Numbered from the stretch's first letter, positions 10,355-34,936 are shown. The stretch is DNA of 58,831 bases from Thermoanaerobaculia bacterium (GCA_049298815.1 JBAQWH010000652.1:1-58831), one strand, 5' to 3'. Numbers and translations are program-made. Notes: generated by a model not told the origin, from the sequence alone.

Positions 10355-10475
10355 TTCGGCCGGCAGAACCACCCGGAACGTCGAACCCTCGCCGAGCGTC
10401 GACTCGTCTGCCAGCTGTCCGTGATGCAGCTCGACGAATGCTTTCGTCAGCGAGAGACCGGGCCCGGTCGGGGAT
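10355..10475 (-). pseudogene. orphan C-terminal fragment of a histidine-kinase ATPase domain
   Basis: Minus-strand translation gives GPGLSLTKAFVELHHGQLADESTLGEGSTFRVVLPAE (G2 box plus the typical HATPase_c end). It has no upstream kinase body and is preceded by an in-frame stop. Confidence 0.4.
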
Positions 10476-10489
10476 CATCCATGATCTGC

Positions 10490-10807: not shown

Positions 10808-11055
10808 TGAGGCAGCGTCTGGAAGACGAGGTAGCGGTTCTCGGAACGGTAGCCGTGATGACGAAGCGCGGCGAGTGCCAGAGCGTGAGCGGCGTTGTAC
10901 GCGAGATCGAAGCGACTCTCGATCGACAGGCCGGCATTCATCGCATCGTGCAGGCGGCGCTCGCCTGATCGGATCAGACTGTCGATCTCGGCGTCGTTCG
11001 GCTCCTCCGCCTTCAGACCTTTTCCGAGCAGGTTCTCAAGCTGACGCAGCGTCAT
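10645..11055 (-). CDS. HEPN-like helical protein, partner of the upstream nucleotidyltransferase (MNT/HEPN-type TA-like pair)
   Basis: 136-aa ORF overlapping the upstream NTase gene by 20 nt. Motif AHRKRNSIEYEG. Homologous to 27251-27685. Confidence 0.7.
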   Translation of the reverse strand: MTLRQLENLLGKGLKAEEPNDAEIDSLIRSGERRLHDAMNAGLSIESRFDLAYNAAHALALAALRHHGYRSENRYLVFQTLPHTLSLAAEQWRVLDAAHRKRNSIEYEGLADVDEQTTEAVIRVAREIHERLLKKR

Positions 11056-19939: not shown

Positions 19940-21049
19940 TCATTCCTCGGGGAACTCTCTGATGAGGTGCCCGACAACGCCAACGAGGCCGTCTGCCTTG
20001 GGCAGCCACTCGTCGAGCCCGACAGCCGGGAAGCTGTCGCCCAGCTCAACGACACGGACGCCAAGCTGGTCGGCGACGAGATGGACGTATCGGTCGTGGA
20101 CCGTCCTAGCCCGATCCGAGCCGGTCAGCCATCCGAAGTTGAACATCATTCGCCCATCTGAGTAGACCGAGAGGAGCGACGCACTCCCGATAGCGGGCAC
20201 CTTCAGGTTGAATGATCCGGTCTTGGTCCCCGTGCCCCACGTCACCTCACATCCGAGTGCGCGGGCAGAGAGAAGAACTTCCTTGAGCGCCATTGCCCGG
20301 TCGTTCAGGACTGACGACGCGTGATCGAAGAACATCTCCTCGTCCCACTTCTGCCGAGCGCCAGACTTCGCAGTCGCGGCGGCACGCTTGGCGATTCGAG
20401 CTTGCTCGGTGAATCCGAACAGGGTCGGCACGACGATCCGCTCTTCGCCATAACGGTACTGCCGGGCCTCCACGAGTAATACCTCGGAGAGACTCATCTG
20501 CTTGTTCAGGAACTCGACGACGCTCTGCAACTCGAACGAGGACTCCTCCAAGAAGAAGACCACTCTGATCTCGCCCTTGATGAGGTTCGCCTCTACCTGC
20601 TCGAAGAACAGTTCAGGAGTGAGTCCGCTAGTTGGTCGGAGACGCGCAAGCACGTCGTCGAGGGTGGTTCCCTTCGACGCCGCCGTAGCCTCAGCGCACG
20701 ACCTGAGATCGTCTCGTGTCCAGTAGCGGTAGCCGTTGGCGGCGTAGTCCAACATCTGCCCCACGACCTTCCGGCGAGCGTCGGTGTCAGCGCTGCGCTT
20801 GCACTCAACAAAGGTGGGTGTGGCGTCTTGATCGACGAAGAAGAAATCGACGCTCCACCTGTCGAGCACCGGCATCTCCCTCTTGATGAGCAGCCAGCGA
20901 CAGGGATCGTCCGGGTTGATCTGGTCGCCGGGCAAGAGGTCGTAGTTCCGGTCGAGGAGATCCTGAAGCTCGACCGTCTCATTCCTGCACTGAATCCTGT
21001 CCAGCGGGACTGATGACCCGTCCTTCTTGAGGCGGTAGACGTTGGCCAC
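19940..21049 (-). CDS. PD-(D/E)xK nuclease-fold protein (NucS/Shedu-like core) with a large C-terminal region
   Basis: VDFFFVDQD...TFVECKRSADTDARRKVVGQMLDY fits the D-x(n)-E-x-K plus Q..Y pattern. Confidence 0.7.
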   Translation of the reverse strand: MANVYRLKKDGSSVPLDRIQCRNETVELQDLLDRNYDLLPGDQINPDDPCRWLLIKREMPVLDRWSVDFFFVDQDATPTFVECKRSADTDARRKVVGQMLDYAANGYRYWTRDDLRSCAEATAASKGTTLDDVLARLRPTSGLTPELFFEQVEANLIKGEIRVVFFLEESSFELQSVVEFLNKQMSLSEVLLVEARQYRYGEERIVVPTLFGFTEQARIAKRAAATAKSGARQKWDEEMFFDHASSVLNDRAMALKEVLLSARALGCEVTWGTGTKTGSFNLKVPAIGSASLLSVYSDGRMMFNFGWLTGSDRARTVHDRYVHLVADQLGVRVVELGDSFPAVGLDEWLPKADGLVGVVGHLIREFPEE

Positions 21050-21089
21050 AGCTTGTTCCTCCTCGAATTCGGGCAGACAGCCGGGGCTG

Positions 21090-21275
21090 TTAGCTCAGTT
21101 TGCAGTCAGGATTTCGGGCGAGGTGCTCGAAGTGCGCGGCCTGATCGGTCGTACCCTTCTTGTGAGCCCGCACCGGCTGCCCGCAACCGACACACCTGTA
21201 CTGAGTTGTCAACCCCGCCTCGCGCACGGCGAGCGCGTCTTCGATGTCGATGATCGCAGTCGTAGCTTTCGGCAT
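21090..21275 (-). CDS. small zinc-ribbon protein
   Basis: 61-aa ORF with CVGCGQP...HFEH...C. Confidence 0.45.
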   Translation of the reverse strand: MPKATTAIIDIEDALAVREAGLTTQYRCVGCGQPVRAHKKGTTDQAAHFEHLARNPDCKLS

Positions 21276-21357
21276 TCCCTACTCCTCGGAGACGTCGTCC
21301 TCGATTTCTTGATTACCTGCCCGCCGGTTCCATGAAGGAGGGCTCGTCCACGGCGAC

Positions 21358-21738
21358 CTATCTAACGCGAGCGCCTCGTTCTTCGAGTAGGGCACGAAGA
21401 ATGCGGCGATGGCAGCGTTCTTCATCATCGCAGTAGCAGCCGACAGAGAAGTTCGCCGAAAGAGACAGGACTGCGAGGGCGTCAAGCAACCGTCGCGCGT
21501 CCGGGCGCTGCATCTCAGCGCGGTATCGACGCTCGAACACTCCATCAGCCTGACGGCCTGACCTCGCAGCGGCGAGGAGCTTTTCGCTCGGGGCGAGGAG
21601 CGGCAGCCAAGCGTCGAAGTAGTTCTCCTCAGCGTAGCGGTCGCGCGCGACACCACGCGGTGGTCTTCGGACGGTTCCCAGCCGTGGACCTTCTCCTCGA
21701 CGCCGCGTTGTTCCGAGTTTGACGATCCTGACGGTCAT
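21358..21738 (-). CDS. DUF488-family protein
   Basis: RRPPRG...W...LAPS..L and the C-terminal CYCDDEERCHRRIL motif are characteristic of DUF488. Confidence 0.7.
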   Translation of the reverse strand: MTVRIVKLGTTRRRGEGPRLGTVRRPPRGVARDRYAEENYFDAWLPLLAPSEKLLAAARSGRQADGVFERRYRAEMQRPDARRLLDALAVLSLSANFSVGCYCDDEERCHRRILRALLEERGARVR

Positions 21739-21848
21739 CTTCTCCCCCTTCCATGATGCGTTCTGAGGTGCGGGAGGCTCGCCGACTGGACGATCACCTC
21801 ACCGTCACTGTCAACGTCGAGGACGGTGATCTCATCGGTCCGTTGCTG

Positions 21849-22163
21849 TCAACGGTACGAGATGGCGATGCTCTCGATGCTGTCGCCGAAGTGCCGATTC
21901 AGATACCCGATGAAGGCTTGCAGCAGTTGCCACTCGGACTCAGGTTTCTTGGTCTTCACCTCGGCCACGATGACGCCTCCGAGCGTCTGCTCCCAGTTGA
22001 TCCAACCGGGATACCGGGCGTGGGTCCAGCGGCCTTCCTTCGCGCGACGTAGCGTCGTGCCCTTCCCGCGTAGTTCACGCTCCTTGGTCTTCAGCATCGA
22101 CTTGAGCGAACCGGCAGCAGCCGGGGAAGGCGTCACTTGCACGATCTTCACGGAGTCCTCCAT
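21849..22163 (-). CDS. hypothetical protein, 104 aa
   Basis: ORF co-directional with its neighbours. No recognisable motif. Confidence 0.45.
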   Translation of the reverse strand: MEDSVKIVQVTPSPAAAGSLKSMLKTKERELRGKGTTLRRAKEGRWTHARYPGWINWEQTLGGVIVAEVKTKKPESEWQLLQAFIGYLNRHFGDSIESIAISYR

Positions 22164-22282
22164 CAGTGGGTTGCGACGGACTCAAGTATACGGCGACCAA
22201 CTCTCTCTATTCCGGCTAACCGTGCACCATCGTTCTGATCAAACGCGAAGGATCGGATCTGCGCTGGGTAACCTGCCTCTCG

Positions 22283-22708
22283 CTATTTGGTCGTGAGCCC
22301 GCGCTTCAGCACCTCGACATAAGTCACCTCCGACAACAGCTCCCTGAAGCCTCGCATGCCGAGCATCTTCCGCACTTGCGTGCGCAGCCGCTTGCATTCC
22401 CGGTACGTCGCTGCGAGGTTGGCACGGTCGAGCGTCGGTACGAGTCGGGCGAAGTGCTCAACGTCGATAGCGTAGTGGGCCAGCGCCGAGTCGTTCGCAA
22501 CTGCGCGCACTGCGTGTTCGATCGTCGGTCCGTCGAACGCCGCGCCGTACGTCATGACGAACCTCATCTTCCGGTTGTCTTCCCTGCGCAGCGTGACTTC
22601 CCAGTGCGTCATTCCCTCAACCGTCGCGCCTGTCCATAACGGGTTCGTCGCCACAGGCTTCGACTCGATCGTGATGCCCCACTTGGTGGCAAAGTCGGCC
22701 CCTGTCAT
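22283..22708 (-). CDS. hypothetical protein, 141 aa
   Basis: The ORF starts 11 nt after the mrr stop. No recognisable motif. Confidence 0.55.
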   Translation of the reverse strand: MTGADFATKWGITIESKPVATNPLWTGATVEGMTHWEVTLRREDNRKMRFVMTYGAAFDGPTIEHAVRAVANDSALAHYAIDVEHFARLVPTLDRANLAATYRECKRLRTQVRKMLGMRGFRELLSEVTYVEVLKRGLTTK

Positions 22709-22719
22709 CTGACGCCCGC

Positions 22720-23634
22720 CTACTCCTCGAAGAAGTCGCTGTCGATCTTCTTGATCACGTAGGTCGCTTCCACCGAGACGCCCACACCGAAGTCGATCAT
22801 CAGTTCGGCGAGACGACGGCCGTCGATCAGCACGATCCTGTTCTCGACCCGGTTCGCGTACCCGACCGCGTCATTCGTGAACGCCGAGGTCGTGATGAAG
22901 ACCCCCTTCCGCGCGCGTTGCCCGTGGAGCGCGCCGACGAACTTCTGAATCTCCGGTCGTCCGACACTTCCCTCCCAGCGCTTGGCTTGGATGTAGATCG
23001 CGTCAAGTCCCAGCCGGTCCTCGTCGATGATCCCGTCGATCCCTCCGTCGCCACCCCGACCGATCGCGCGGCCAGCGTCGGCTCGCGAGCCTCCATAGCC
23101 CATAGCCAGCAAGAGGGTCACCACGAGCTTCTCAAAGAACTCCGGCGTGGCGCTTTTCACCTTTGCCAAAAGGTCTGCCGCTAGCGCGCCTCGCAGCTTT
23201 GAGTAGGCGTTCTCCAGCGTCTCCTCGGGCGTCGCCAGCTCCGACGTTTCCGTCTCGTCGGCCTGCACCGCACCGGCGGCTTCGCGACGGCGGGAGTATC
23301 TGAACTCGACGAACTGCGGGAAGCGTTCGAGGTACTTGATGTCGATGCGGTGCGGCGGGTCTTTCAGCACCTCGACGCCTTGCGATGAGATGACGAAGTG
23401 GCCACGCTTCGGCGATGTAAGAAGCCCAGCCTGAGCGAGGTAGACCTTCGCCCACGCCGCACGGTTCGCGAACACGGCCTGGCGGCCGCTGGGCAGCAGC
23501 GACGCAAGCTCCTCGGGGGTCAGGTTGAACTCCTTCGCCAGAACCTCACGCGCCTCGGCCAACGAGTGATCTTTCCCGTCGGCTGCGAAACGGAGCATCG
23601 GGAGAAGGAGCGACTGAAAGTCGGGGACGGGCAT
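22720..23634 (-). CDS. mrr: Mrr-family type IV restriction endonuclease
   Basis: Mrr_N-like wHTH N-terminus (PDFQSLLLPMLRF...) and a catalytic core GGDGGIDGIIDEDRLGLDAIYIQAKRW. Confidence 0.9.
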   Translation of the reverse strand: MPVPDFQSLLLPMLRFAADGKDHSLAEAREVLAKEFNLTPEELASLLPSGRQAVFANRAAWAKVYLAQAGLLTSPKRGHFVISSQGVEVLKDPPHRIDIKYLERFPQFVEFRYSRRREAAGAVQADETETSELATPEETLENAYSKLRGALAADLLAKVKSATPEFFEKLVVTLLLAMGYGGSRADAGRAIGRGGDGGIDGIIDEDRLGLDAIYIQAKRWEGSVGRPEIQKFVGALHGQRARKGVFITTSAFTNDAVGYANRVENRIVLIDGRRLAELMIDFGVGVSVEATYVIKKIDSDFFEE

Positions 23635-23806
23635 CGGAATCCTCGTGCTGACGACTACTCGAAGGGCGCGAGCGCTCGGTGATGGACGACTCTTCGTATT
23701 CTGCCATCAAGCTGTCAGAATCCGCCGAGTTCAGATCGGTCTTCGGTGCGACGTCGCGGTTCGACGTGCAGCCGTTCGAAGGCGATGGCCGACGCTCAGG
23801 AGAGAC

Positions 23807-26611
23807 ATGGACCCGTCACAGCTCAAGTGGATCGCCAACTTCATCTGGGGGATCGCGGACGACGTTCTCCGCGACCTCTACGTGCGAGGGAAGTACCGCG
23901 ATGTCATCCTGCCGATGATCGTCCTCCGGCGCCTCGATGCGGTGCTGGAGCCGACGAAGAGGCCCGTGCTCGACATGAAGGCGTCGCTCGATGCGGCGGG
24001 GATCACGAATCAGGATCAGGCGCTGCGAACCGCCGCCGGGCAGGCGTTCTACAACGTCTCGAAGTTCACGTTGCGCGATCTGAAGTCGCGCGCCAGCCAG
24101 CAACAACTCAAGGCCGACTTCGAAGCGTACCTCGACGGCTTCTCACCGAACGTTCAGGAGATCCTCGACAACTTCGAGTTCCGCAACCAGATCCCGAGGC
24201 TTTCGAAGGCTGATGCGATCGGGACACTCATCGAGAAGTTCACGTCGTCTGAGATCAACCTGAGTCCCTCGCCCGTCTTCAGCGGCGACGGCAGCGTAAA
24301 GCACCCCGGCCTCGACAACCACGCGATGGGAACGATCTTCGAGGAGCTGGTGCTGCGCTTCAACGAAGAGAACAACGAGGAGGCAGGAGAGCACTGGACA
24401 CCGCGCGACGCCGTCCGGCTCATGGCGAACCTGATCTTCCTGCCGATCGCCGACCAGATCGAGTCCGGAACGTACCTGCTGTACGACGGCGCGTGCGGAA
24501 CCGGCGGCATGTTGACGGTCGCCGAGCAGACGCTACAGAAGCTGGCGGCTGATCGAGGAAAGCAGGTCGCGACGCATCTCTACGGACAGGAGATCAACGC
24601 GGAGACCTATGCCATCGCGAAGGCCGACCTGCTGCTGATGGGCGACGGCGAAGCCGCTGACAACCTCGTCGGAGGTCCCGAGCACTCGACCCTCGCGAAC
24701 GACGCATTCCCCTCACGCGAGTTCGACTTCATGCTTTCAAATCCGCCATACGGCAAGAGCTGCAAATCCGATCTCGAAAGAATGGGCGGCAAGGGCGGGA
24801 TCAAAGATCCGCGCTTCGTCATCTCTCATGCGGGCGATCCCGAGTATTCGCTCATCACGCGGTCCAGCGACGGGCAGATGCTGTTCCTCGCCAACATGCT
24901 GTCGAAGATGAAGCACGGAACGAAGCTCGGCAGCCGCATCGCCGAGGTTCACAACGGATCGTCACTCTTCACCGGCGACGCCGGACAGGGTGAGAGCAAC
25001 GTCCGACGCTGGATCATCGAGAACGACTGGCTCGAAGCGATCGTCGCACTGCCGCTGAACATGTTCTACAACACGGGAATCGCGACGTACGTGTGGGTGC
25101 TGACGAACCGAAAACCCGAGCATCGTCGGGGCAAGGTGCAGCTCATCGACGCGACCGGCTGGTACAAGCCACTTCGGAAGAACCTCGGCAAGAAGAACTG
25201 CGAGTTGTCGGACGACGACGTCCGGAAGATCGGCGACACGTTCCTCGCGTTCGAGGAGACCGAGCAGTCGAAGATCTTCGCGAACGAGGAGTTCGGGTAC
25301 TGGAAGCTCACGGTCGAGCGCCCGCTGCGCATCAAGGGCATCGACCCGAATCGCGCCTACACGGCGAAGGAGATCAAGGCGCTGAAGGAGACCGGCGAAC
25401 GCGACGAAGCGGCGCCGCCGGTCATCCGGAAGATCTACAAGCCGGGCAAGGTCGACTCAGACAGGTTACGCGGCCTCGCCGAGACCACCATCGACGGGAA
25501 GACTGTAATCGTTGAGTATGAGCCCGACCCTGATCTTCGGGATACCGAGCAGATTCCGCGACTTGAGCCGGGCGGCCTCGCTGCTTTCATTGAGCGAGAG
25601 GTTTGGCCGCATGTGCCGGACGCGTGGATTGACTACTCAAGCCTTCGTACTGGTTATGAGATCAACGTCAATCGTTACTTCTTCCACGATCAGCCCGCCC
25701 GCTCGCTCGACTCCATACGAGCGCAGATTGTGACGGTACAGAACAAGGCTTCCGACGTTATGTCGGAGCTGCTTGGCGTTCATATCGACCGAAGTTCCGT
25801 CATCAATGTTCCAGCCGGGCTGATGGCGAAGGTGCAGCCATACGCGACGTACAAAGACTCTGGTCTTTCATGGCTGCCACTGATACCCGAGTCGTGGTCG
25901 GTTGTGCGGAACGGTCGTCTGTTTGCTCAACGGAACGAAACCGGTTTTGCCGAGTTGCCGATCCTTGAAGTCTCTCTTCACACCGGTGTCCGCATTAGGA
26001 CTTTCGATGTTGCTTCGCGAAAGCAGGTTATGTCGGATCGCTCTGCGTACAAGAGAGCACGTTGCGGTGACTTGGCGTACAACATGATGCGGATGTGGCA
26101 GGGCGCCGTGGGCACGGCGCCTGTCGACGGCCTTGTTAGTCCGGCGTATGTTGTCGCGAGACCGTTCGCAGGAACGCACGTCAGGTATTTCGCGCACCTC
26201 TACCGCACCGCGATGTACATGCGGGAAGTCGAGGCGTACTCTCGCGGCATTGTTGCAGACCGAAACCGCTTGTATTGGACTGCGTTCAAGCAGATGACCG
26301 CACCGTGCCCGCCTGCTCATGAACAGGAAGCTATCGTTCGGTTCTTAGCACATGCTGATCGCCTGATAGTAGAGCTGCTCGGCAGCTACGGGCACCTCGC
26401 TGGAGTGGCTCGCTCAGTGGCCGAACGTGAGGCGTCGCTACTCCACGATTTTCGACGTCGGTTGTTTTCGGACGTCATCACCGGCACGCTCGACGTACGT
26501 GACGCTGCCGCGTCGCTGCCTGAAGTGGCGGAGATCTTCATGCCCTCTGGCGAGACGCTCGATGAAGAGTCCGAGGCTGCCGAAGCCGCTGAGGAGGAAG
26601 CGCTCGCGTGA
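23807..26611 (+). CDS. hsdM: type I R-M methyltransferase HsdM fused in frame to a single-TRD (half-size) HsdS
   Basis: HsdM N-terminus MDPSQLKWIANFIWGIADDVLR, motif I YDGACGTGGML and motif IV LSNPPYGKS. From about 25.75 kb there is an HsdS-like TRD (LPLIPESWSVVRNGRLF...LVSPAYVV) plus one conserved helical region. No stop separates the two parts. Confidence 0.85.
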   Translation: MDPSQLKWIANFIWGIADDVLRDLYVRGKYRDVILPMIVLRRLDAVLEPTKRPVLDMKASLDAAGITNQDQALRTAAGQAFYNVSKFTLRDLKSRASQQQLKADFEAYLDGFSPNVQEILDNFEFRNQIPRLSKADAIGTLIEKFTSSEINLSPSPVFSGDGSVKHPGLDNHAMGTIFEELVLRFNEENNEEAGEHWTPRDAVRLMANLIFLPIADQIESGTYLLYDGACGTGGMLTVAEQTLQKLAADRGKQVATHLYGQEINAETYAIAKADLLLMGDGEAADNLVGGPEHSTLANDAFPSREFDFMLSNPPYGKSCKSDLERMGGKGGIKDPRFVISHAGDPEYSLITRSSDGQMLFLANMLSKMKHGTKLGSRIAEVHNGSSLFTGDAGQGESNVRRWIIENDWLEAIVALPLNMFYNTGIATYVWVLTNRKPEHRRGKVQLIDATGWYKPLRKNLGKKNCELSDDDVRKIGDTFLAFEETEQSKIFANEEFGYWKLTVERPLRIKGIDPNRAYTAKEIKALKETGERDEAAPPVIRKIYKPGKVDSDRLRGLAETTIDGKTVIVEYEPDPDLRDTEQIPRLEPGGLAAFIEREVWPHVPDAWIDYSSLRTGYEINVNRYFFHDQPARSLDSIRAQIVTVQNKASDVMSELLGVHIDRSSVINVPAGLMAKVQPYATYKDSGLSWLPLIPESWSVVRNGRLFAQRNETGFAELPILEVSLHTGVRIRTFDVASRKQVMSDRSAYKRARCGDLAYNMMRMWQGAVGTAPVDGLVSPAYVVARPFAGTHVRYFAHLYRTAMYMREVEAYSRGIVADRNRLYWTAFKQMTAPCPPAHEQEAIVRFLAHADRLIVELLGSYGHLAGVARSVAEREASLLHDFRRRLFSDVITGTLDVRDAAASLPEVAEIFMPSGETLDEESEAAEAAEEEALA

Positions 26612-27264
26612 GGGTGACTCATCTTCCCGAATCGGGTACGATCATTCCCGAAATGGGAACAACACGGGCAGCGCAGCAGGCGAGCGCCGTCGCATCAGCG
26701 CTGTTCACGCCCGTCCAGCAGCGGGTCCTTGCACTACTCTTCGGTCAACCTGACCGACGCTTCCAGAGCGCTGAGCTGATCCGGCTCGCTCGCGGCGGAA
26801 CAGGTGCGGTTCACCGGCAGCTTCAACGACTCGCGAACGCGGGGCTCGTCACTGTCTCGCAGGACGGCAATCAGAAGTATTACGCGGCGCGGAAAGACTC
26901 GCCGGTTTTCGCCGAGTTGCACGGCCTTGTCGTGAAGACAGTCGGAGTCGTCGAGCCGCTACGTGCTGCGCTGCGGCCGATCGGGAAGAAGATCTCAGCC
27001 GCGTTCGTCTACGGCTCAATCGCCAAAGGGAACGAGCGGCCGGAGAGTGACCTCGATCTTCTGATCATCAGCGAGAAGCTCACCTACCCGGAAGCCTACG
27101 AGGCTTTGCAGGACGCGGAGCAGGAGATCGCGAGAACGGTCAACCCGACCGTGATGACGCCATCGGAATGGAAGCGGAAGCGGACTGCCTCCGACTCGTT
27201 CGCGAAGCGCATCGCCTCACAACCGAAACTCTTCGTGATCGGAGACGAGCGTGCCCTCGGCTGA
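26608..27264 (+). CDS. winged-helix plus minimal nucleotidyltransferase (MNT-like) protein
   Basis: FVYGSIAKGNERPESDLDLLIIS NTase motif. The GTG start overlaps the hsdM-S stop (GTGA). Confidence 0.8.
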   Translation: MRVTHLPESGTIIPEMGTTRAAQQASAVASALFTPVQQRVLALLFGQPDRRFQSAELIRLARGGTGAVHRQLQRLANAGLVTVSQDGNQKYYAARKDSPVFAELHGLVVKTVGVVEPLRAALRPIGKKISAAFVYGSIAKGNERPESDLDLLIISEKLTYPEAYEALQDAEQEIARTVNPTVMTPSEWKRKRTASDSFAKRIASQPKLFVIGDERALG

Positions 27265-27685
27265 ACTCGACCGGCTCGTTTCGATCAACCTGCTTTCTCA
27301 CGAGGCGCCGATTCGCGCCGAGTTCGAGGGTCTTCTCGAAGACGCTGCCGCGACGCTGACCGATTCTCAGAACGGAACGCTTTCACCGGAGAGCCGGTTC
27401 CGTCTCGCGTACGGCGCGGTCCATTCGATCGCCCTCGCAGCCCTCCGGTGGCATGGCTACCGACCCCGTAACAACCGACAGGTCGTCTTCCAAGCACTCG
27501 CCCACACGTTGCAGGTTCCCGCGCCGGTCTGGCGAATGCTCGCCCGCAGCCACGAGCAGCGCAACCGGCGCGAGTACGAGGGTCGCGGCGAGATCGACGA
27601 GCGACTGCTCGCCGACGTGATCGCCGCCGGGACCGACCTCCTCGCGCAAATCCGCCAACTTCCTTTACCCGAGGAGCCGGAGTGA
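27251..27685 (+). CDS. HEPN-like helical protein (partner of the MNT-like gene)
   Basis: Homolog of 10645-11055 (RFRLAYGAVHSIALAALRWHGYR...SHEQRNRREYEG). Overlaps the upstream gene by 14 nt. Confidence 0.7.
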   Translation: MPSAELDRLVSINLLSHEAPIRAEFEGLLEDAAATLTDSQNGTLSPESRFRLAYGAVHSIALAALRWHGYRPRNNRQVVFQALAHTLQVPAPVWRMLARSHEQRNRREYEGRGEIDERLLADVIAAGTDLLAQIRQLPLPEEPE

Positions 27686-30600
27686 AGACCGACACCAGCG
27701 AAGCAGGTCTCGAAGCCCTGATCGTCACCGCCATGACGGGACGCGCCGAGGTTCCGAGCGATGACGAGGTCCTCGACGCCTCGCTGCTCTACGGCGGCAC
27801 CGGCTGGATTCTCGGGCATTGGAAGGACTACGACCGCGACTACGCCGTTGATCTCAAGCAGCTCGCGGCCTTCGTTGCGGCCACCCAGCCGAAGGTGGCC
27901 GACGCACTCGCCCTCGAACACGACTCCCCTAACCGTCAGAAGTTCCTCGCACGGCTGCAAGGGGAGATCACCAAGCGCGGCATCATCGACGTGCTTCGGC
28001 ACGGCGTGAAGCACGGGCCGCTCCACGTCGACCTGTTCTACGGAACGCCCTCACCCGGCAACGCCAAGGCCGAGGAGAGGTTCGCAGCGAACCGGTTCAG
28101 CGTGACGCGGCAGGTCCGGTACAGCAAGGACGAGACGCAGCTCGCGCTCGACCTCGCTCTCTTCATCAACGGACTTCCGGTCGCTACGTTCGAGCTGAAG
28201 AACAGCCTCACCAAGCAGACGGTTCAGGATGCCGTCGAGCAGTACCAGAGGGACCGCGACCCGCGAGAACTCCTCTTCCAGTTCGGACGCTGCATCCTCC
28301 ATTGCGCCGTGGACGACCATGAGGTGCGGTTCTGCACGCACCTCAAGGGCAAGGGGTCGTGGTTCCTGCCGTTCAACAAAGGGTGGAACGACGGCGCGGG
28401 GAACCCGCCGAACCCGAACGGCCTCAAGACCGACTACCTGTGGAAAGAGACGCTCACGCCGCGCGGTCTGACGGAGATCATCGAGAACTACGCGCAGGTC
28501 GTCGAGAAGAAAGACCCGAAAACCGGGCGGGTCAACCGAGAGCAGATCTTCCCGCGCTACCACCAGCTCGACGTCGTTCGGAAACTGCTCTCGGCTGCGA
28601 AGGCCGATGGCGTAGGCAAGCGCTACCTGATTCAGCACTCCGCAGGATCAGGAAAGTCGAACTCGATCGCGTGGCTGGCACACCAGCTCATCGGGCTCAC
28701 ACGCGATGAGAAAGGCGTCTTCGACTCGATCATCGTCATCACCGATCGCATCCTGCTGGACAGGCAGATCCGCGACACGATCAAGCAGTTCGCACAGGTG
28801 GGAGCGACGGTCGGTCACGCGGACCATTCCGGCGACCTTCGGCAGTTCATCGCCTCGGGGAAGAAAATCATCATCTCGACGGTGCAGAAGTTCCCCGTCA
28901 TCCTCAAAGAGATCAACGAAGAGTCTGAGCACCGGAAGCGAACCTTCGCGATCATCATCGACGAGGCCCATTCCAGTCAGGGCGGGAAAGCCTCGGCTGC
29001 CGTCAACGAAGCGCTCTCGGTTTCCGGGACGGTGGATGAGGACGAGACGACCGAGGATCGTATCAACCGCATCATGGAGTCGCGGAAGTTCCTGCCGAAT
29101 GCGAGTTATTTCGCCTTCACGGCGACCCCGAAGAACAAGACGCTGGAGATCTTCGGCGTCCCCTACGACGAGGGCGGCGAGAGGAAACACCGCGCCTTCC
29201 ACCCGTACACGATGAAGCAGGCGATCGAGGAAGGATTCATTCTCGACGTCCTCCGCTTCTTCACGCGGGTCGAGAGCTACTACAAGCTCGTGAAGACGAC
29301 GTCGGACGACCCAGAGTTCGACACGAAGCGAGCGAAGAAAAAGCTACGGCGCTACGTCGAGAGCCATGACCACGCCATCCAGCTCAAGGCCGAGATCATG
29401 GTCGACCACTTCCACGAGCAGGTCATCGCGCTGAATAAGATCGGCGGGAAAGCCCGCGCGATGGTGGTGACGAGCAGCATCGAGCGGGCCATTCAGTACT
29501 ACCGCGCGATGAGCGCATACCTGACCGAGAGGAAGAGCCCGTACAAGGCCATCGTCGCTTTCTCAGATACGGAGATCGACGGCCAGAAGGTCACGGAGTC
29601 GATGCTGAACGGGTTTCCGTCCAACAAGATCCCGGACAACATCCGCGAGGACCCGTACCGATTCCTCGTGTGCGCCGACAAATTTCAGACCGGCTACGAC
29701 GAGCCGCTGCTCCACACGATGTACGTCGACAAGCCGCTCTCCGGGATCAAGGCTGTCCAGACCCTTTCACGGCTCAACCGCGCTCGCCCGCAGAAGTACG
29801 ACGTCTTCGTCCTCGACTTCATGAACGACGCGGCGACGATCGAGGCTGCGTTCGCGGACTACTACCGGACCACGATCCTCAGCGAAGAGACAGACCCGAA
29901 CAAGCTGCACGACCTCAAGGCGGCGCTCGACGGCTATCAGATCTACTCGATCGACCAGATCGAGGCGCTCGTTGCGTACTACCTCGGCGGGTCCGACCGG
30001 GACAAGCTCGACCCGATTCTCGATACCTGCGTGGCAAACTACGTCAGCCAGCTCGATGAAGATGGGCAGGTCGACTTCAAGGGGAAGGCGAAGGCGTTCA
30101 CTCGCACGTACGGGTTCCTGTCAGCCGTGCTTCCCTACACCAGCGCGGAGTGGGAGAAGTTGTCGATCTTCCTCAACTTCCTCGTCCCGAAGCTGCCAGC
30201 ACCGAAGGAAGAAGACCTTTCAAAGGGCATCCTCGAAGCGATCGACATGGACAGCTACCGCGTCGAGAAGCAGTCGACGATGCGGATTCAGTTACCTGAC
30301 GCCGACGCGGAGATCGGCCCCGTGCCGACGAGCGGAGGAGGCCACAAGCCGGAGCCGGAACTCGACCGGCTGTCGAACATCATCCGCACGTTCAACGACC
30401 AGTTCGGCAACATCGCGTGGTCGGATCAGGATCGCGTTCACCGGCTGGTGACGCAGGAGATTCCGGCGAAGGTCGCGGCGGACGTGGCATACCAGAACGC
30501 GGTGAAGAACTCGGATAAGCAGAACGCGAAGATCGAGCACGACAAAGCGCTGCTGCGGGCCGTCACCTCGCTGCTGAAGGACGACACCCAGTTTTTCAAG

Positions 30601-30690
30601 GAGTTCAGCGACAACGACTCGTTCCGGCGCTGGGTCACTGACACCGTCTTCTCGATCACGTACGACAAGACTGCTGGACCACCTCCGTAG
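27682..30690 (+). CDS. hsdR: type I restriction enzyme R subunit HsdR
   Basis: N-terminal PD-(D/E)xK (LDLALFINGLPVATFELKN). Helicase motifs QHSAGSGKSNS, IIIDEAHSSQ, FAFTATP and QTGYDEPLL. The GTG start overlaps the upstream stop (GTGA). Confidence 0.92.
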   Translation: MKTDTSEAGLEALIVTAMTGRAEVPSDDEVLDASLLYGGTGWILGHWKDYDRDYAVDLKQLAAFVAATQPKVADALALEHDSPNRQKFLARLQGEITKRGIIDVLRHGVKHGPLHVDLFYGTPSPGNAKAEERFAANRFSVTRQVRYSKDETQLALDLALFINGLPVATFELKNSLTKQTVQDAVEQYQRDRDPRELLFQFGRCILHCAVDDHEVRFCTHLKGKGSWFLPFNKGWNDGAGNPPNPNGLKTDYLWKETLTPRGLTEIIENYAQVVEKKDPKTGRVNREQIFPRYHQLDVVRKLLSAAKADGVGKRYLIQHSAGSGKSNSIAWLAHQLIGLTRDEKGVFDSIIVITDRILLDRQIRDTIKQFAQVGATVGHADHSGDLRQFIASGKKIIISTVQKFPVILKEINEESEHRKRTFAIIIDEAHSSQGGKASAAVNEALSVSGTVDEDETTEDRINRIMESRKFLPNASYFAFTATPKNKTLEIFGVPYDEGGERKHRAFHPYTMKQAIEEGFILDVLRFFTRVESYYKLVKTTSDDPEFDTKRAKKKLRRYVESHDHAIQLKAEIMVDHFHEQVIALNKIGGKARAMVVTSSIERAIQYYRAMSAYLTERKSPYKAIVAFSDTEIDGQKVTESMLNGFPSNKIPDNIREDPYRFLVCADKFQTGYDEPLLHTMYVDKPLSGIKAVQTLSRLNRARPQKYDVFVLDFMNDAATIEAAFADYYRTTILSEETDPNKLHDLKAALDGYQIYSIDQIEALVAYYLGGSDRDKLDPILDTCVANYVSQLDEDGQVDFKGKAKAFTRTYGFLSAVLPYTSAEWEKLSIFLNFLVPKLPAPKEEDLSKGILEAIDMDSYRVEKQSTMRIQLPDADAEIGPVPTSGGGHKPEPELDRLSNIIRTFNDQFGNIAWSDQDRVHRLVTQEIPAKVAADVAYQNAVKNSDKQNAKIEHDKALLRAVTSLLKDDTQFFKEFSDNDSFRRWVTDTVFSITYDKTAGPPP

Positions 30691-30797: not shown

Positions 30798-31958
30798 ATG
30801 TCGGACTTCGTAGACCCTCGCGATCACCCGCAGCCTCCAGCGGTTCGCAGGCTCCCGTCGACCGAGTTGGACGCTCTGGAGGAGTTGTCAAAGCTCTGCC
30901 GGTCAGGACGTCTGTACGCGGTCGAGCAGTGGATCAAGGAAGGCAAGCCGCTCTACGCCGAGAACTACTCGCGAGGACGCGGGCGAAGGGTTCAAAGCGC
31001 GCTCTCCGTCGCGATCGAGACGAAGCAGGTCGACCTCGCGTTGCTCCTGCTCTGCAACGGCTTTCCACCCGACGCCGGTGGTGAGTCTCTTCTCGACGAC
31101 GCGGTCCGTGATCGGCAAGAGGATTTCGTCGAACTGCTCATGAAGTGGGGCGCCGATCCGTTGCGCCTGAATCCATACGACGTCCTCGACAGCTACGACG
31201 CCGACCTGTACGAGCGCTTCTGGACCCTCGGATTGGATTTCGCCCGCAACCACGCCCTCGCCCGGATGCTCGCTGGCCAGTCATCGAATCGTCCCGCGTA
31301 TGGATGGGCGCGGCGGCACAACACTGAGCCGAAGGTAGCGAGGGAGCTGGCCATCGCTCTCGTCCACGCGGTGGCCGAGAACCGCGAAAGAGCCGTAGCC
31401 CTGCTCGTCTGGGCTGGAGCAGATCCTCGAAGGCCAGCCCCAGACTTGCGATACATGCGAGCCGACGAGGATGAGCCCGACGAGGACTGTTTGACCGCCA
31501 TCGAGTACGCGGTGATGTACGGCTACGGCCATCTGCTCAAGACACTCAAGCCGCACCCGACTCGCGACAACTTCGAGAGGCTCTGGGCGTGGGTCTGCGA
31601 TGAAACCGCGATCGACTACCTCGGGAAGCTCGCGCGCCCCGAGGACTGGTCGGCCGTCCTTACCCGCAATCTGGACCACGCTCTTTCCCGGTACTCAGGC
31701 GACGCGTCCCGGAAGTGCGTCGAGAAGCTGACGGTCTCGTACGGCGCTCGGCTCACGGCGATGACACCTGAACGCATCGCTCAGTTCCGGCGCGACGTCG
31801 TCCGGTCGGATAACGAATCGGGCTGCCGGTGGGTCCTGCGATGGATGAGTTACGAGGAGACATGCGAGCCATCTGTGTTCGCCGAGCTGACACGGACTCC
31901 ATCCGTTCGTGCGAAGCTGAACTCCCTTCACATCCGAGACGCACGATACCGGTACTAA
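30798..31958 (+). CDS. ankyrin-repeat-like protein (putative)
   Basis: Repeated helix-turn motifs of the type ALSVAIETKQVDLALLLLCNGFPPD and DDAVRDRQEDFVELLMKWGADP. Motif-level call. Confidence 0.5.
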   Translation: MSDFVDPRDHPQPPAVRRLPSTELDALEELSKLCRSGRLYAVEQWIKEGKPLYAENYSRGRGRRVQSALSVAIETKQVDLALLLLCNGFPPDAGGESLLDDAVRDRQEDFVELLMKWGADPLRLNPYDVLDSYDADLYERFWTLGLDFARNHALARMLAGQSSNRPAYGWARRHNTEPKVARELAIALVHAVAENRERAVALLVWAGADPRRPAPDLRYMRADEDEPDEDCLTAIEYAVMYGYGHLLKTLKPHPTRDNFERLWAWVCDETAIDYLGKLARPEDWSAVLTRNLDHALSRYSGDASRKCVEKLTVSYGARLTAMTPERIAQFRRDVVRSDNESGCRWVLRWMSYEETCEPSVFAELTRTPSVRAKLNSLHIRDARYRY

Positions 31959-31974
31959 CCGCGTGGAGGCGACG

Positions 31975-33135
31975 ATGTACGCCAGATACGAGCAACTGAC
32001 GCGTCAAGAGCTTTACGAGCAGATCTGGTCGGTTCCGGCGACGAAGCTGAGCGAGCGGTTTGGCCTTTCCGGGCGTGGTCTCGCGAAGCTGTGCGAGCGG
32101 CACGAGATCCCCGTTCCCGATCGGGGATGGTGGGCGAAGAAGGCGGCCGGTCAAGATGTGAAGCAGTTGCCGCTGCCGAAGCCAAGCAATCCGTATTTGG
32201 ACCGGATCGAAGTAAGGGTGCGCGAAGACTGGCGTACCTACGTCAGCGAGGATGAGCTGAAGTGGTTCGAGCAGCAGATCGCGGCAGAGCCGAGCCGTCC
32301 ACCGCTCATCGTTCGCGAAGAAGACGATTCGCGTCACCCGCTGATCGTCCGCGCTCGGCGCGAGCGGAAGGACAGCGCTCCTGCTCCGCTCCACTTCGCT
32401 CTCGACGTCAGCAAGGAGCAGCGACCTCGCGCGCTACGGCTTGCGGCTGCCATTGTTGAGGGATGCGAGCAGAGGGATTACTCGTTCGCGCCCGGTCCCG
32501 ATGCTGCGACCGGTGAGGCCACAGTCGTCATCCTCGGCCAGCACATTGGGGTGGCGGTCGTGGAGCCGTATGCGAAGGTCCCACACGTTCTCACGAAGGC
32601 CGAGGCAAGGGAGAAGGCGGTCGGGCGCGGCTGGGGCATCCCTGATTTCGACTCGGTCAGGAGTGGGACTCTGGCCATCGCGCTCACCCACTCGGCCGAC
32701 GGCGAGCGCCGGACGTTCAGCGCGAAGTCCGACCAGCCGCTGGAGGCCACGCTTCCGGAGTTCTTTAAAGCTCTGCCGAAGATCGCGCTGCGCATGAAGG
32801 CTGACAAGAACTGGCACGCCGAACAGGAACGCATTCGAAAGGAGGAAGCCGATCGCCGTGCCGAATTGGAGCGCCTCCGTCGGGAAGAACAGGCCCGGCT
32901 TGCGGCCGAGAAGCGGCGGCGGAACGAACTCCTTCGCGCGAGTGCTTCGCTTCGCCGGTCGAACGACATCCTCGCACTCGTGACCGCCGTCGAGGCGGCT
33001 GCTGAAGAGCGGGGGCTTCTCGACAAAATAGCCGCGTGGGCGCGCTATGCGCAGACCGTAGCGAACGACCTGAACCCCGTCGATCCGATTCTCGTCGCGG
33101 AGACACACGTTTCGCAGCGGACCCCGAGCAAATAA
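31975..33135 (+). CDS. hypothetical protein with an N-terminal HTH-like region and a C-terminal Arg/Glu coiled coil
   Basis: ATG with a GGAGG RBS at 31975. ELYEQIWSVPATKLSERFGLSGRGLAKLCERHEIPVPDRGWW followed by EQERIRKEEADRRAELERLRREEQARLAAEKRRR. Confidence 0.6.
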   Translation: MYARYEQLTRQELYEQIWSVPATKLSERFGLSGRGLAKLCERHEIPVPDRGWWAKKAAGQDVKQLPLPKPSNPYLDRIEVRVREDWRTYVSEDELKWFEQQIAAEPSRPPLIVREEDDSRHPLIVRARRERKDSAPAPLHFALDVSKEQRPRALRLAAAIVEGCEQRDYSFAPGPDAATGEATVVILGQHIGVAVVEPYAKVPHVLTKAEAREKAVGRGWGIPDFDSVRSGTLAIALTHSADGERRTFSAKSDQPLEATLPEFFKALPKIALRMKADKNWHAEQERIRKEEADRRAELERLRREEQARLAAEKRRRNELLRASASLRRSNDILALVTAVEAAAEERGLLDKIAAWARYAQTVANDLNPVDPILVAETHVSQRTPSK

Positions 33136-33237: not shown

Positions 33238-33867
33238 CTATGCTCCGTCGACAAGTAACTTCGCCGCACCCAGCAGGCCGGTCGTGATCTGCTCGTAGCG
33301 CGAAGTAGGCGGGGCACCGGAGAACTGTCCGCGAAGAAAAGCAGCAGGGTGTCTTTCCCGAGGCGCCAAAGGGGTGTTCCCGATCACGCGCTTCTCGAAC
33401 TTCTCTTGGCTGAATCGACTACGGTGCGCGATCGCATTCCGAATAGCATGCGCGCGACCGATCAGATCTCGCTGCGTCATTGACAACGAAGAGAACGGGC
33501 GACCCCCACGGAGGAACGTCTGGGCCCGTTCCAGAGTGTTCTCGATAGGAAGCCAGTCTACGTATCTTTTCGGGCCAAAACCGATTAGGAGTTCTCGTGC
33601 GATGGGATAGGACCTGATCGACACGCGCGGTTGCGAGCGTCGCCTTTTCGTCGATCGCGGATCGCTGATCAGCAGCGTCATGAAGAGGTCTTCGATGAAC
33701 ACCTCGAATGAGGTGAAGCTGCTCAGGAAGAGACTTTCATGGAGTTGCTCGGACACTCTTACCGGAAGCGCACCTGTCAGAACCAACGGTTCAACTCGGC
33801 CGCGAGTCTGGTTGAGCGAGTTGAACCGCGTCAGCAGTTTTTGAAAAAGCTCACTTGGCTCTGGCAC
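33238..33867 (-). CDS. HEPN-like nuclease (RiboL-PSP / MAE_28990-like) partner of DUF262
   Basis: Rx4H motif in AHAIRNAIAHRS. Overlaps the DUF262 gene by 17 nt. Confidence 0.6.
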   Translation of the reverse strand: MPEPSELFQKLLTRFNSLNQTRGRVEPLVLTGALPVRVSEQLHESLFLSSFTSFEVFIEDLFMTLLISDPRSTKRRRSQPRVSIRSYPIARELLIGFGPKRYVDWLPIENTLERAQTFLRGGRPFSSLSMTQRDLIGRAHAIRNAIAHRSRFSQEKFEKRVIGNTPLAPRERHPAAFLRGQFSGAPPTSRYEQITTGLLGAAKLLVDGA

Positions 33868-34936
33868 GTTTGACTTGCTCGTTCAAGAACCGCAGTCGTG
33901 TCTCGCGTGCCGGGTGGTGGTTCGTCGCACCTCGTAGCACTTCTGCGACATCGTCAGGCACGCTGCCCGTCTCGATCAACTCTGAAGCTCGCCTTACTGC
34001 CTCTGCCGCGCCTCGGGGAGCCGTCTTGGCCTTCATTCTGGTCAAGGAGGAACCGAGCCCGAACAGCAGGTCGTAGTAGAACGTGAAGAGCGTGTGAAAC
34101 AGCGGCTTGCGACGAAACTGGGAAGATGGCAGGTCCTTCCCGAGCTGGAGAGCAATAGCGTCAAACACGGCGCGGAAACGGTTCGCAACCTCTCCTGACT
34201 TCGGAAAATGGTCATCGAACAGCTCGTACACTTCGTGGATCAGTTTCAAGTCCTTACCATGCACGCCGTTCATCATGGTCAGGATCATGTCGCCCGTCTC
34301 CTCGACCTCCAGCATGCGGGCTATGTCGGTCTCGTTGAATACTCGCCAGTCGCGCCACCGATCAAGTTGCTCATAGGCGAGCTGGTAGCAGATGGTCTTG
34401 AAGGCACCGAAAAACTCGGCGTTCAGTAGCTCTTGGTTGTTCAGCTTGAACCCTGTCGAGTTCATACGACCGAAAATTTGGAGGACCTCCCGATCCTCTG
34501 CGTCATGGGGAAGGACGTGCACGCTGAGTTCGTAATTCAGGATCGCGACACGTACCTCCTTGGAGAGCTGAGAGAAGTTCAATCCGGAGATCGCCGGGTT
34601 GTGAACACGCTCAACGACGAAGGCATCACGCTCACCGTCGAAGTCCTTGAGGGACTGGGGTTCTACGAAGGAGATGAGCGTCCGTAGTCGCTGCTGACCG
34701 TCCACAACTTCTCGTTCAGGTTCCAGAGAGGTGGGGTTCGTCCTTTCCCGCAGGAAGATGATCGGCATGGGTATGCCGCGCACGACCGTGTCGATGAGAA
34801 GCGATTTTGCCTTGCGGGGCCAGACGGGCCGTCGCTGAAACGCGGGGCTCAGGATGAGCGAACCGACGCGATTCCACGTCAAGAAATCCGAGACCTTGAA
34901 CACTCGCGGGATGCTGATCACGGTCGAATTCTGCAC
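33851..34936 (-). CDS. DUF262 (ParB-like nuclease/NTPase, GmrSD N-terminal type) protein
   Basis: LQRRPVW-type motif (FQRRPVWPRKAKSLLIDTVVRGIPMPIIF) and VVDGQQRLRTLISF. Confidence 0.85.
   Translation of the reverse strand: MQNSTVISIPRVFKVSDFLTWNRVGSLILSPAFQRRPVWPRKAKSLLIDTVVRGIPMPIIFLRERTNPTSLEPEREVVDGQQRLRTLISFVEPQSLKDFDGERDAFVVERVHNPAISGLNFSQLSKEVRVAILNYELSVHVLPHDAEDREVLQIFGRMNSTGFKLNNQELLNAEFFGAFKTICYQLAYEQLDRWRDWRVFNETDIARMLEVEETGDMILTMMNGVHGKDLKLIHEVYELFDDHFPKSGEVANRFRAVFDAIALQLGKDLPSSQFRRKPLFHTLFTFYYDLLFGLGSSLTRMKAKTAPRGAAEAVRRASELIETGSVPDDVAEVLRGATNHHPARETRLRFLNEQVKRARAK

Follow-up and report, generated by a model that had tools for sequence, protein, structure and literature searches.

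A Type I restriction-modification (R-M) system is recognized by HsdM, a gamma-class N6-adenine methyltransferase with an HsdM N-terminal domain, a separate HsdS specificity subunit with two target-recognition domains (TRDs) and two conserved regions, and a separate HsdR that combines a PD-(D/E)xK nuclease with an SF2 motor. Such systems translocate DNA at the expense of ATP and cleave it at a distance from their bipartite site. Removal of the frameshift between hsdM and hsdS of EcoKI gave a functional system, and for such fusions the class name 'Type IMS' was introduced, with one-TRD forms accompanied by a separate HsdR explicitly included (Roberts 2012; PMC3510504). The construct 'M½Sfus', engineered from S. 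aureus CC398-1, is well expressed and dimeric, methylates the palindrome ACCN5GGT and, together with HsdR, restricts phage lambda with an efficiency of plating of 0.10 (Bower 2018; PMC6158711). As a hypothetical stage on the way from Type I to Type IIG and Type II enzymes, fusions of HsdM with a one-TRD HsdS were constructed in 2012 and again in 2018. Here we analyse a natural locus of this layout, an operon of four genes consisting of an hsdM-half-hsdS fusion, a pair of small genes and hsdR, which lies in a complete 58,831-bp contig (GCA_049298815.1, JBAQWH010000652.1) of a Thermoanaerobaculia (Acidobacteriota) metagenome-assembled genome (MAG); the whole of this contig is referred to below as the window.

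The two small genes belong to a second line of work. A 'guilt-by-embedding' screen of Type I R-M, BREX and DISARM operons has yielded a catalogue of phage defence candidates (PDCs; bioRxiv 10.1101/2024.01.29.577857), among them PDC-M05, described as a nucleotidyltransferase together with a HEPN-domain protein (PMC12988326); when a PDC-M05 representative was cloned alone in E. coli B, the cells were protected from one or more of the phages T4, T5 and T7 (PMC12881386). The anticodon nuclease PrrC is hardly ever found other than embedded in a Type I system (bioRxiv 10.1101/2024.01.29.577857), and a paper of 2013 proposed a PrrC-like logic for the HEPN genes that occur within R-M operons (PMC3710099). 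From the evidence set out below, we consider it probable that the operon in the window is one polycistronic defence unit with two separable layers, namely a Type I enzyme of the M-half-S kind and an embedded PDC-M05 pair.

The HsdM-half-HsdS fusion and its operon

The operon opens with a single long reading frame, whose ATG at 23807 is preceded by AGGAGAG (23798-23804) and whose stop codon is the TGA at 26609-26611 (Table 1). Each of the three following genes overlaps its predecessor: the fusion and the first small gene, PDC-M05A, share the GTGA at 26608-26611, PDC-M05A and PDC-M05B overlap by 14 nucleotides (nt) from the GTG at 27251 to the TGA at 27262-27264, and PDC-M05B and hsdR again share a GTGA (27682-27685). 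Purine-rich, Shine-Dalgarno-like sites are found 5-10 nt 5' of each downstream start (GGAGG at 26593-26597, GGAG at 27241-27244 and GAGGAG at 27671-27676), and all three junctions are compatible with translational coupling. A scan of the operon returned no promoter-like site, and terminator-like sites at chance level only, such a scan being weak and uninformative for an acidobacterium.

Table 1. Coordinates of the operon, of its parts and of other features in the window
Feature	Position	Strand	Basis or remark
hsdM-hsdS(half) fusion, 934 aa, 'Type IMS' architecture	23807-26611	+	Single open reading frame (ORF); Pfam, PADLOC, AlphaFold, Foldseek
HsdM-homologous part, residues 1-656, ending ...SELLG	23807-25774	+	Alignment of relatives, C-terminus comparison
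Stop-free bridge of 16 codons, VHIDRSSVINVPAGL...	25775-25822	+	DNA alignment with L001; HsdS N-terminus comparison
Single TRD, residues 673-834, orthologous to TRD1 of two-TRD relatives	25823-26308	+	BLASTP
Hybrid conserved region and acidic tail, residues 835-934	26309-26608	+	Short-query BLAST, AlphaFold
PDC-M05A, ArsR-like winged helix and minimal nucleotidyltransferase, 218 aa, predicted antitoxin/regulator	26608-27264	+	PADLOC, Pfam
PDC-M05B, HEPN-fold protein, 144 aa, predicted toxin	27251-27685	+	PADLOC, AlphaFold, Foldseek
hsdR, 1002 aa, apparently intact	27682-30690	+	Pfam, motifs, 81% identity to L001 HsdR
Third PDC-M05B remnant, last ~47 residues match PDC-M05B	3180-3434	-	E 1e-12
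Second PDC-M05B-like gene, 136 aa	10645-11055	-	PADLOC 2e-56; 49% identical to embedded copy
Second PDC-M05A-like gene, 221 aa	11036-11701	-	PADLOC 8e-69; 38% identical to embedded copy
Defence island: weak PDC-S11-like gene	19940-21049
Defence island: divergent Mrr-type Type IV enzyme	22720-23634		PADLOC mREase_IV 2e-93
Ankyrin-repeat protein, directly after hsdR	30798-31958		No PADLOC match
390-aa protein of no named family	31963-33135		No PADLOC match
Defence island: possible partner of the next gene	33238-33867
Defence island: GmrSD_N/NsnA-like gene	33851-34936

The first two thirds of the fusion protein form a methyltransferase of the Type I family. Pfam HsdM_N (3.5e-22) and N6_Mtase (1.6e-46) match over residues 9-487, and the PADLOC MTase_I model PDLC03029, with its 661 positions, matches at an E-value of 1.9e-228. 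Motif I (DGACGTGG, residue 227) precedes NPPY (residue 312), with the TRD C-terminal to both, which is the order of the gamma class. At the other end of the operon, HsdR carries the Pfam domains HSDR_N, SWI2_SNF2, ResIII and a T1R_D3-like region, together with the motifs ELK (residue 171), GSGKS (residue 322) and DEAH (residue 427), and it aligns over its full length with HsdR of L001, the closest locus that we found; its match to TIGR00348 (E 4.6e-62, 210.5 bits) lies below the curated cut-off of 284.55. The catalytic motifs are thus intact in both HsdM and HsdR, and the locus has, like Type I systems, an HsdM with the HsdM N-terminal domain and a separate HsdR with nuclease and motor. A separate HsdS with two TRDs and two conserved regions is absent from the window, and no other HsdS-like sequence occurs on the 58.8-kb contig; what is present instead, HsdM and HsdS in a single frame next to a separate hsdR, is the combination that defines Type IMS.

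The specificity part has half the usual size. PADLOC Specificity_I models match residues 673-855 with one model half each (for example positions 1-184 of 448, E 3e-33), and Pfam Methylase_S gave no match to the C-terminal 444 residues of the fusion even at E-values up to 10. In BLASTP comparisons with the 484-aa HsdS of L001, the S part is 61% identical to residues 4-217, which comprise TRD1, and the C-terminal helix of the fusion separately matches the distal conserved region of the same protein. An AlphaFold model of the fusion has a mean predicted local distance difference test (pLDDT) score of 82. The HsdM part, including its C-terminal helix 634-656, is predicted with confidence, residues 657-668 score below 50, consistent with a flexible linker, and the TRD is mostly at 75-93. 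The conserved region is modelled as helices at 837-863 and 867-891, the confidence being low over 851-875, and a monomer model cannot separate one long helix that pairs between chains from a hairpin. In Foldseek searches, Type I HsdM chains and PacII M subunits ranked first, followed by BpuSI (Type IIG), CamA and M.BseCI, which aligned over the whole length with poor superposition (root-mean-square deviation 17-25 Å).

These results agree well with the initial annotation, which had been made from the sequence alone. It had described a single 934-codon M-S frame, now borne out by the ORF table, the translations and a second assembly, with a complete gamma-class methyltransferase (Pfam and PADLOC matches, motif order, C-terminal TRD) followed by half of a normal HsdS; exactly one TRD and one conserved helical region were indeed recovered, by the half-model matches of PADLOC and by BLASTP. 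Classification with hidden Markov models points the same way, to MTase_I plus Specificity_I in PADLOC and HsdM_N plus N6_Mtase in Pfam. The three overlaps lie exactly where the annotation had placed them, and its proposal that all four genes are made from one message fits the overlapping junctions, each downstream start having its Shine-Dalgarno-like site. A stop codon or frameshift dividing hsdM from hsdS had been named as a danger to this picture; none is seen in the Logan assembly of run SRR28062818, which was built separately and is 100% identical to the window over 6,318 nt (20806-27123). This match spans the hsdM-hsdS fusion junction, the TRD2 deletion junction discussed below and the M-S/M05A overlap, without reaching the 14-nt overlap or the GTGA at 27682.

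Origin and recurrence of the fusion

To place the fusion among its relatives, we collected the 120 best matches to the whole 934-aa protein and the 120 best matches to its S part. The HsdM relatives, at 79-83% identity, are all unfused and cover about 70% of the query; 118 of the 120 are 658-668 aa long, the outliers having 676 and 697 aa. Homology to HsdM ends at ...SELLG (residue 656), and relatives of 659-661 aa stop only 2-6 residues further on. The relatives of the S part are all stand-alone proteins, none of them part of an M-S fusion; most have about 445-515 aa and two TRDs, a few 331-429 aa. L001 represents this arrangement with an hsdM of 660 aa, an hsdS of 484 aa and an hsdR of 996 aa, hsdM and hsdS overlapping by ATGA. 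Because the closest HsdM relatives are unfused proteins of about 660 aa and the relatives of the S part stand alone, the fusion is derived from an unfused 660-aa HsdM and a separate two-TRD HsdS, and it is new within its own clade of about 80% identity.

The fusion point can be located from the former gene ends. Met673 (nt 25823) is in frame and aligns with the start codon of the HsdS relatives, which (n=44) begin with M-x3-LKPYPxYKDSG, compared with MAKVQPYATYKDSG in the window. The junction reads ...GL-M673-AKVQPYATYKDSG, in frame, and an out-of-frame TGA overlaps the old hsdS ATG (cTGATGg). Across this junction the DNA of L001 is only about 75% identical and differs by several indels. Internal initiation at Met673 would yield a free half-HsdS, and no convincing Shine-Dalgarno site was found upstream of this codon.

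A second rearrangement can be read from the conserved region. When short stretches were compared by BLAST with the full-size members (at least 440 aa) of the 120 HsdS relatives, residues 835-860 were closest to the central conserved regions (46-49 bits, versus at most 36 for distal ones) and residues 880-909 to the distal conserved regions (60-63 bits, versus at most 19 for central ones). The region is thereby a hybrid, central-like over its first ~20 residues and distal-like over its last ~30, and the low-confidence part of the structural model surrounds the junction between the two. Measured from PP to (R/H)E-x-(A/S)LL, two motifs of the region, it has 39 residues, compared with 28 in the canonical distal regions of L008 and L001, a difference that points to an out-of-register deletion with about 11 extra residues left behind. 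We infer that TRD1 was kept and that TRD2 was lost by such a deletion between the two conserved regions. The origin of the fusion would then have comprised two steps, both in frame: loss of the stop codon and of the frame offset at the hsdM/hsdS overlap, and the out-of-register deletion that removed TRD2.

Judged from its close relatives only, the fusion could have been taken for a one-off lesion, a view that is weakened by a wider search. In an exhaustive search of 1.84 billion cluster representatives, from which the best 150 (50%-identity clusters) were examined and their architecture compared in alignment A4, a natural HsdS-like C-terminus of roughly single-TRD size was present in 16 of the 150, and 11 of these are full-length proteins of 774-918 aa. 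One of them, P0363 (895 aa, 48% identity), matches in a single alignment over query residues 7-895. In six loci, L087-L092, such a fusion and HsdR form a two-component system, with HsdS-like similarity confined to the 3' end of the fusion and at most ~240 nt past its stop; four loci of this kind combine the M-S fusion and HsdR without any further HsdS-like sequence. HsdR follows immediately in L088 and after a 123-aa ORF in L089; in L087 the order is fusion, TIR, HATPase_c, DUF1016 (YhcG), a 156-aa ORF and HsdR, and in L090-L092 it is a helix-turn-helix (HTH) gene, the fusion, Fic and HsdR. Five metagenome-assembly contigs, one from pig gut, carry the fusion of the L090 type (P0393).

In L090-L092, at about 8700-9100, the tblastn match of a two-TRD HsdS runs up to ~240 nt past the fusion stop into the 5' end of the Fic gene; this could be the leftover of a deleted hsdS half, or a weak extension of the alignment.

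The recurrent fusions were not all reached in the same way. In P0363 and P0389, the C-terminal helix of HsdM joins the end of the central conserved region (...AIIHQAVIRGID / ...VVTRGL), followed by TRD2 and the distal region, a route for which one deletion could suffice. With TRD1 retained in the window and TRD2 in P0363 and P0389, at least two deletion routes lead to an HsdM-half-HsdS protein, and natural fusions of this kind make up about one in ten of the best-matching clusters of the HsdM family.

Two side observations concern this gene family. P0475 (341 aa) combines about 100 residues of an HsdM N-terminus, a partial TRD1 of the window type (59% identity) and a single conserved region; by this composition it is a chimeric remnant, showing that large deletions recur in this gene pair. 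The HsdM family is, in addition, unusually conserved, the HsdM of the window being 79-83% identical to entries labelled Deltaproteobacteria, Burkholderiales, Bacteroidota, Mycobacterium, Steroidobacteraceae and the archaeon Methanoculleus, a distribution from which it follows that a single Type I family has spread very widely by horizontal transfer.

A targeted full-text search of the literature, with REBASE outside its scope, yielded no description of a natural HsdM-half-HsdS fusion with a separate HsdR. The term 'HsdMS' in papers on Pseudomonas was considered as a possible natural fusion and rejected, being shorthand for two proteins. In the literature searched, the fusion in the window is a naturally occurring case, recent in origin and with an origin that can be traced, of a layout reported so far only as an engineered construct. 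Since the ancestral state can be read from close relatives, the pathway becomes testable with natural enzymes, in which site symmetry, the relation of spacer to helix length, subunit stoichiometry and sensitivity to DNA mimics could be compared.

The embedded PDC-M05 pair

The two genes inserted before hsdR match PADLOC PDC-M05A (E 1.9e-75) and PDC-M05B (E 9.9e-48), in this order, and the pair is an already catalogued candidate system, not a new one. PDC-M05A consists of an ArsR-like winged helix-turn-helix (wHTH) domain and a Pol-beta nucleotidyltransferase domain (Pfam Polbeta, NTP_transf_2) with the motif GSx10DxD at residues 136-150 (GSIAKGNERPESDLD). It scores 38.7 bits against the NCBIfam equivalog model of MntA (NF047752), below the cut-off of 60, and also matches ArsR-type HTH models; its sequence matches in the PDB are the ArsR-type regulators YgaV and ArsR.

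PDC-M05B, on record as hypothetical protein WA208_18540, had no Pfam or NCBIfam match, and none to the Pfam HEPN/DUF86 models even at E-values up to 10. Its AlphaFold model (mean pLDDT 92) nevertheless found HEPN structures only as top Foldseek matches: AF0298 (2hsb; TM 0.64/0.72), TT1696 (1ufb) and the HepT toxins 6m6w, 7bxo, 5yep and 7ae8, the HepT structures at probabilities of 0.9-1.0. A profile match to 2hsb had an E-value of 0.13. The conserved motif reads H101-x2-R104-N105-x3-Y109-E-G111, with H101, R104, N105, Y109 and G111 invariant in an alignment of 48 sequences; it amounts to Rx4Y plus a separate conserved His, a Tyr occupying the canonical His position of the Rx4-6H motif. For the HEPN-T family, which includes 2hsb and whose genes cluster with R-M operons, a similar situation has been described: the cases reported have Asp in place of the canonical His, for which a His at another conserved position may substitute (PMC3710099). 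The non-canonical combination of His101, Arg104 and Tyr109 merits biochemical attention. The description of the two small genes as an MNT-type nucleotidyltransferase and a HEPN-like protein, given in the initial annotation, is confirmed by the Polbeta match and GSx10DxD motif of the first and by the modelled fold of the second.

The genomic distribution of the pair was examined in the best 80 of 492 confirmed genome loci that encode a PDC-M05B relative. PDC-M05A lies immediately upstream of PDC-M05B in 79 of them. Type I genes were found near the pair in only four (L008, L084, L069 and L074), a number to be read as a lower bound, since such neighbours were detected by tblastn with proteins of the window's own family. 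The closest relatives of the pair (72-85% identity, L003-L007) stand alone in unrelated neighbourhoods. A second complete pair, likewise stand-alone, lies on the minus strand of the window itself (10645-11701); its A and B genes overlap by 20 nt, and it adjoins a PAS/HisKA/HATPase/receiver hybrid kinase (6905-10312), not R-M genes. The third PDC-M05B remnant (Table 1) overlaps the 5' end of a Reg_prop/Y_Y_Y/GGDEF gene (3353-6523), and relatives of the pair occur on 21 plasmids, 17 of them conjugative. Because the pair is seldom near Type I genes, has its nearest relatives alone, occurs a second time on the same contig and is carried on plasmids, PDC-M05 is, by its genomic contexts, an autonomous, multicopy and mobile toxin-antitoxin-like module.

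In two of the four loci with Type I neighbours, L008 and L084, these neighbours belong to the window's Type I family and the pair lies between hsdS and hsdR. In L008 (uncultured Acidobacteria MAG, 30-4417), hsdS and M05A overlap by TTGA, A and B by 14 nt, and M05B and hsdR by ATGA, giving the same S-[4 nt]-A-[14 nt]-B-[4 nt]-R layout as in the window. The L008 pair is only 62-66% identical to that of the window, compared with 75-85% for the stand-alone copies, and the identical overlap lengths suggest an operon form that was inherited and later underwent cassette exchange, rather than separate insertions into the window, L008 and L084. The shared layout, like the position of the pair in L084, also leaves room for some functional link with hsdR expression.

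L084 (Deltaproteobacteria MAG, 971-11666) carries two cassettes: PDC-M32A (2799-4211, E 3e-147) separates hsdM from hsdS, and PDC-M05, with a toxin gene that looks inactivated, separates hsdS from hsdR. The surroundings of the operon in the window form a defence island, the members of which are given in Table 1 with the two genes that follow hsdR.

Competing explanations and relation to known systems

If the operon is one unit with two separable layers, it could operate as follows. Two fusion chains would pair through their conserved-region helices, and the resulting M2S1-like core, its two TRDs identical, would recognize a symmetric bipartite site and methylate adenine in each strand; joined by two HsdR subunits, it would translocate and cut unmodified DNA. 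For a homodimer that reads a palindromic bipartite site, engineered M½Sfus is the direct experimental precedent (PMC6158711). PDC-M05A would keep PDC-M05B inactive, probably by nucleotidylylating Tyr109 beside Arg104, in analogy to the type VII pair MntA/HepT, whose mechanism is AMPylation (PMC7641770), and its wHTH domain probably autoregulates expression. Stress upon infection would release PDC-M05B and lead to abortive infection or growth arrest. Embedding would provide co-transcription, translational coupling with hsdR and joint inheritance, with no control of the toxin by the R-M enzyme implied.

A number of points weigh against this reading. The fusion is unique in its 80%-identity clade and needed two lesions, and it could be a recently damaged allele. 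Its conserved region is about 11 residues too long, with a centre of low model confidence and a helix break at 864-866, so that the geometry of a dimer is not assured, and the EcoKI M-S fusion, in a construct that carried two TRDs, needed free HsdM in vitro (PMC3510504). As for the pair, PDC-M05B has no canonical Rx4-6H motif and misses the Pfam HEPN/DUF86 models, its RNase activity being putative; the score of PDC-M05A falls short of the curated cut-off for MntA; in L084, codon 17 of PDC-M05B is an in-frame stop, which indicates that the embedded toxin can decay; and the overlap layout common to the window and L008 leaves room, as noted, for some link of the pair with hsdR expression.

Some of these points would be met by an R-M part that is a decaying allele, the fusion being inactive or an orphan methylase and HsdR and the pair merely remaining. 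We regard this as unlikely. It would account for the absence of any second fusion among the 120 HsdM and 120 S-part close relatives, for the need of two separate rearrangements and for the odd extension, modelled with low confidence, at the conserved-region junction; remnants such as P0475 show that decay occurs in the HsdM family, and L084 has its premature stop. However, both lesions are in frame and have left an ORF of 934 codons, the motifs of HsdM and HsdR are intact and hsdR is full length, the architecture recurs in the 16 representatives described above, one such fusion being present on five contigs, and the engineered equivalent is active (PMC6158711).

The initial annotation had gone further with respect to the pair, comparing it to prrC in the EcoprrI locus and proposing a HEPN-like RNase with its own nucleotidyltransferase as a different solution to the same logic. 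In the form of a latent HEPN RNase that is held by HsdM-S and HsdR and fires when a phage anti-restriction protein disables the enzyme, this explanation is quite improbable. It is favoured by the coupled position between specificity gene and hsdR, which recurs with identical overlap lengths in L008 and to which the pair between hsdS and hsdR in L084 corresponds, and a guard function of this kind has been proposed generally for R-M-linked HEPN genes (PMC3710099). The claim of a new solution falls, however, since the pair is the known PDC-M05 and the analogy dates from 2013 (PMC3710099), and the context argues against dependence on the R-M complex: few loci near Type I genes (4 of 80), closest relatives that stand alone, a second stand-alone copy on the contig and copies on plasmids. 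The pair, moreover, carries its own predicted neutralizer and would need no masking by the R-M complex, no PrrC-type ABC ATPase sensor domain was found in either protein with Pfam and NCBIfam, a PDC-M05 representative protects when cloned alone (PMC12881386), and PrrC itself differs in being almost exclusively Type I-embedded (bioRxiv 10.1101/2024.01.29.577857). The contexts examined do not favour PrrC-like control of the pair, and embedding alone should not be read as evidence for it.

A more ambitious version of the preferred reading would join its two layers: a working natural example of the homodimeric intermediate predicted between Type I and Type IIG, served by a separate HsdR and arisen repeatedly in one HsdM family by different deletion routes, with PDC-M05 wired to it as one sensor-effector circuit. 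Ribosomes might in this case have to translate the toxin gene for HsdR to be made, or inhibition of the R-M complex might free the toxin. We give little credence to this combination.

A very remote alternative is that the wHTH-nucleotidyltransferase protein acts as a controller of hsdR in the manner of a C protein, delaying restriction in a new host, and that the pair is no defence module of its own. The ArsR-like DNA-binding domain of PDC-M05A and the position of the pair directly 5' of hsdR, with translational coupling, would suit such a role, but the pair is overwhelmingly found without any hsdR, no promoter-like site was seen inside the operon (in a weak scan), and the invariant HEPN-fold partner would be left unexplained. 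A metagenomic mis-join as the source of both the fusion and the TRD2 deletion, conceivable in a MAG contig with HsdS genes that hold internal repeats (the two conserved regions), is largely refuted, because the separate Logan assembly is identical across both junctions, both of which are in frame, and because the two conserved regions in this HsdS family are too dissimilar at the protein level to collapse.

With the operon read as a Type I enzyme of the M-half-S kind and an embedded but separable PDC-M05 pair, its place among known systems can be defined. The nearest counterparts of the fusion are M½Sfus (PMC6158711) and the Type IMS class (PMC3510504), in which, as in the window, HsdM is fused in frame to an N-terminal TRD and one conserved region, with HsdR separate. 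Compared with M½Sfus, the fusion in the window is natural, has a 16-residue read-through bridge and a hybrid conserved region about 11 residues longer, and its activity is predicted; its HsdM belongs to a different family with a C-terminal extension of about 170 residues. With classical Type I systems (EcoKI, EcoR124I and, closest, L001) the window has in common the order M-S-R and the type of TRD1, with 83% identity to L001 in HsdM and 81% in HsdR, but it has no separate HsdS, a single TRD and two extra genes before hsdR. Type IIG and ISP enzymes and related gamma-class methyltransferases with a C-terminal TRD (BpuSI, LlaGI, CamA, M.BseCI) likewise unite a methyltransferase and a single TRD in one chain; these, however, have no separate HsdR or a fused one and act as monomers on short asymmetric sites, whereas the window keeps the Type I HsdM N-terminal domain, the helix of the conserved region and a separate HsdR.

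For the inserted pair our result is mainly corrective, identifying it as catalogued PDC-M05 with the behaviour of an autonomous mobile element. In its A and B models, gene order and 14-nt overlap the pair corresponds to PDC-M05 as described (Payne 2024 preprint; PMC12881386; PMC12988326) and differs in nothing essential; particular to the window are the 4-nt overlaps at both outer junctions, with the fusion upstream and hsdR downstream. Type VII HepT/MntA pairs (SO_3166/SO_3165; Aphanizomenon HEPN/MNT) resemble it in the MNT gene coming first, in the GSx10DxD motif, in an invariant Tyr near the HEPN Arg and in the Foldseek matches to HepT. Unlike MntA, PDC-M05A has an extra N-terminal wHTH domain, in addition to its score below the MntA cut-off, and unlike HepT, with its Rx4HxY motif, PDC-M05B has Rx4Y and the invariant His101, its nearest structural match being the UPF0332/HEPN-T protein AF0298 (2hsb). 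With PrrC in the EcoprrI Type Ic locus, finally, the pair shares the presence of a HEPN-superfamily gene inside a Type I hsd operon. PrrC, however, unites ABC ATPase and HEPN in one protein, which the R-M complex masks and whose gene is nearly always embedded, whereas the PDC-M05 pair lacks an ATPase domain, comes with a nucleotidyltransferase partner of its own and is mostly found away from R-M genes.

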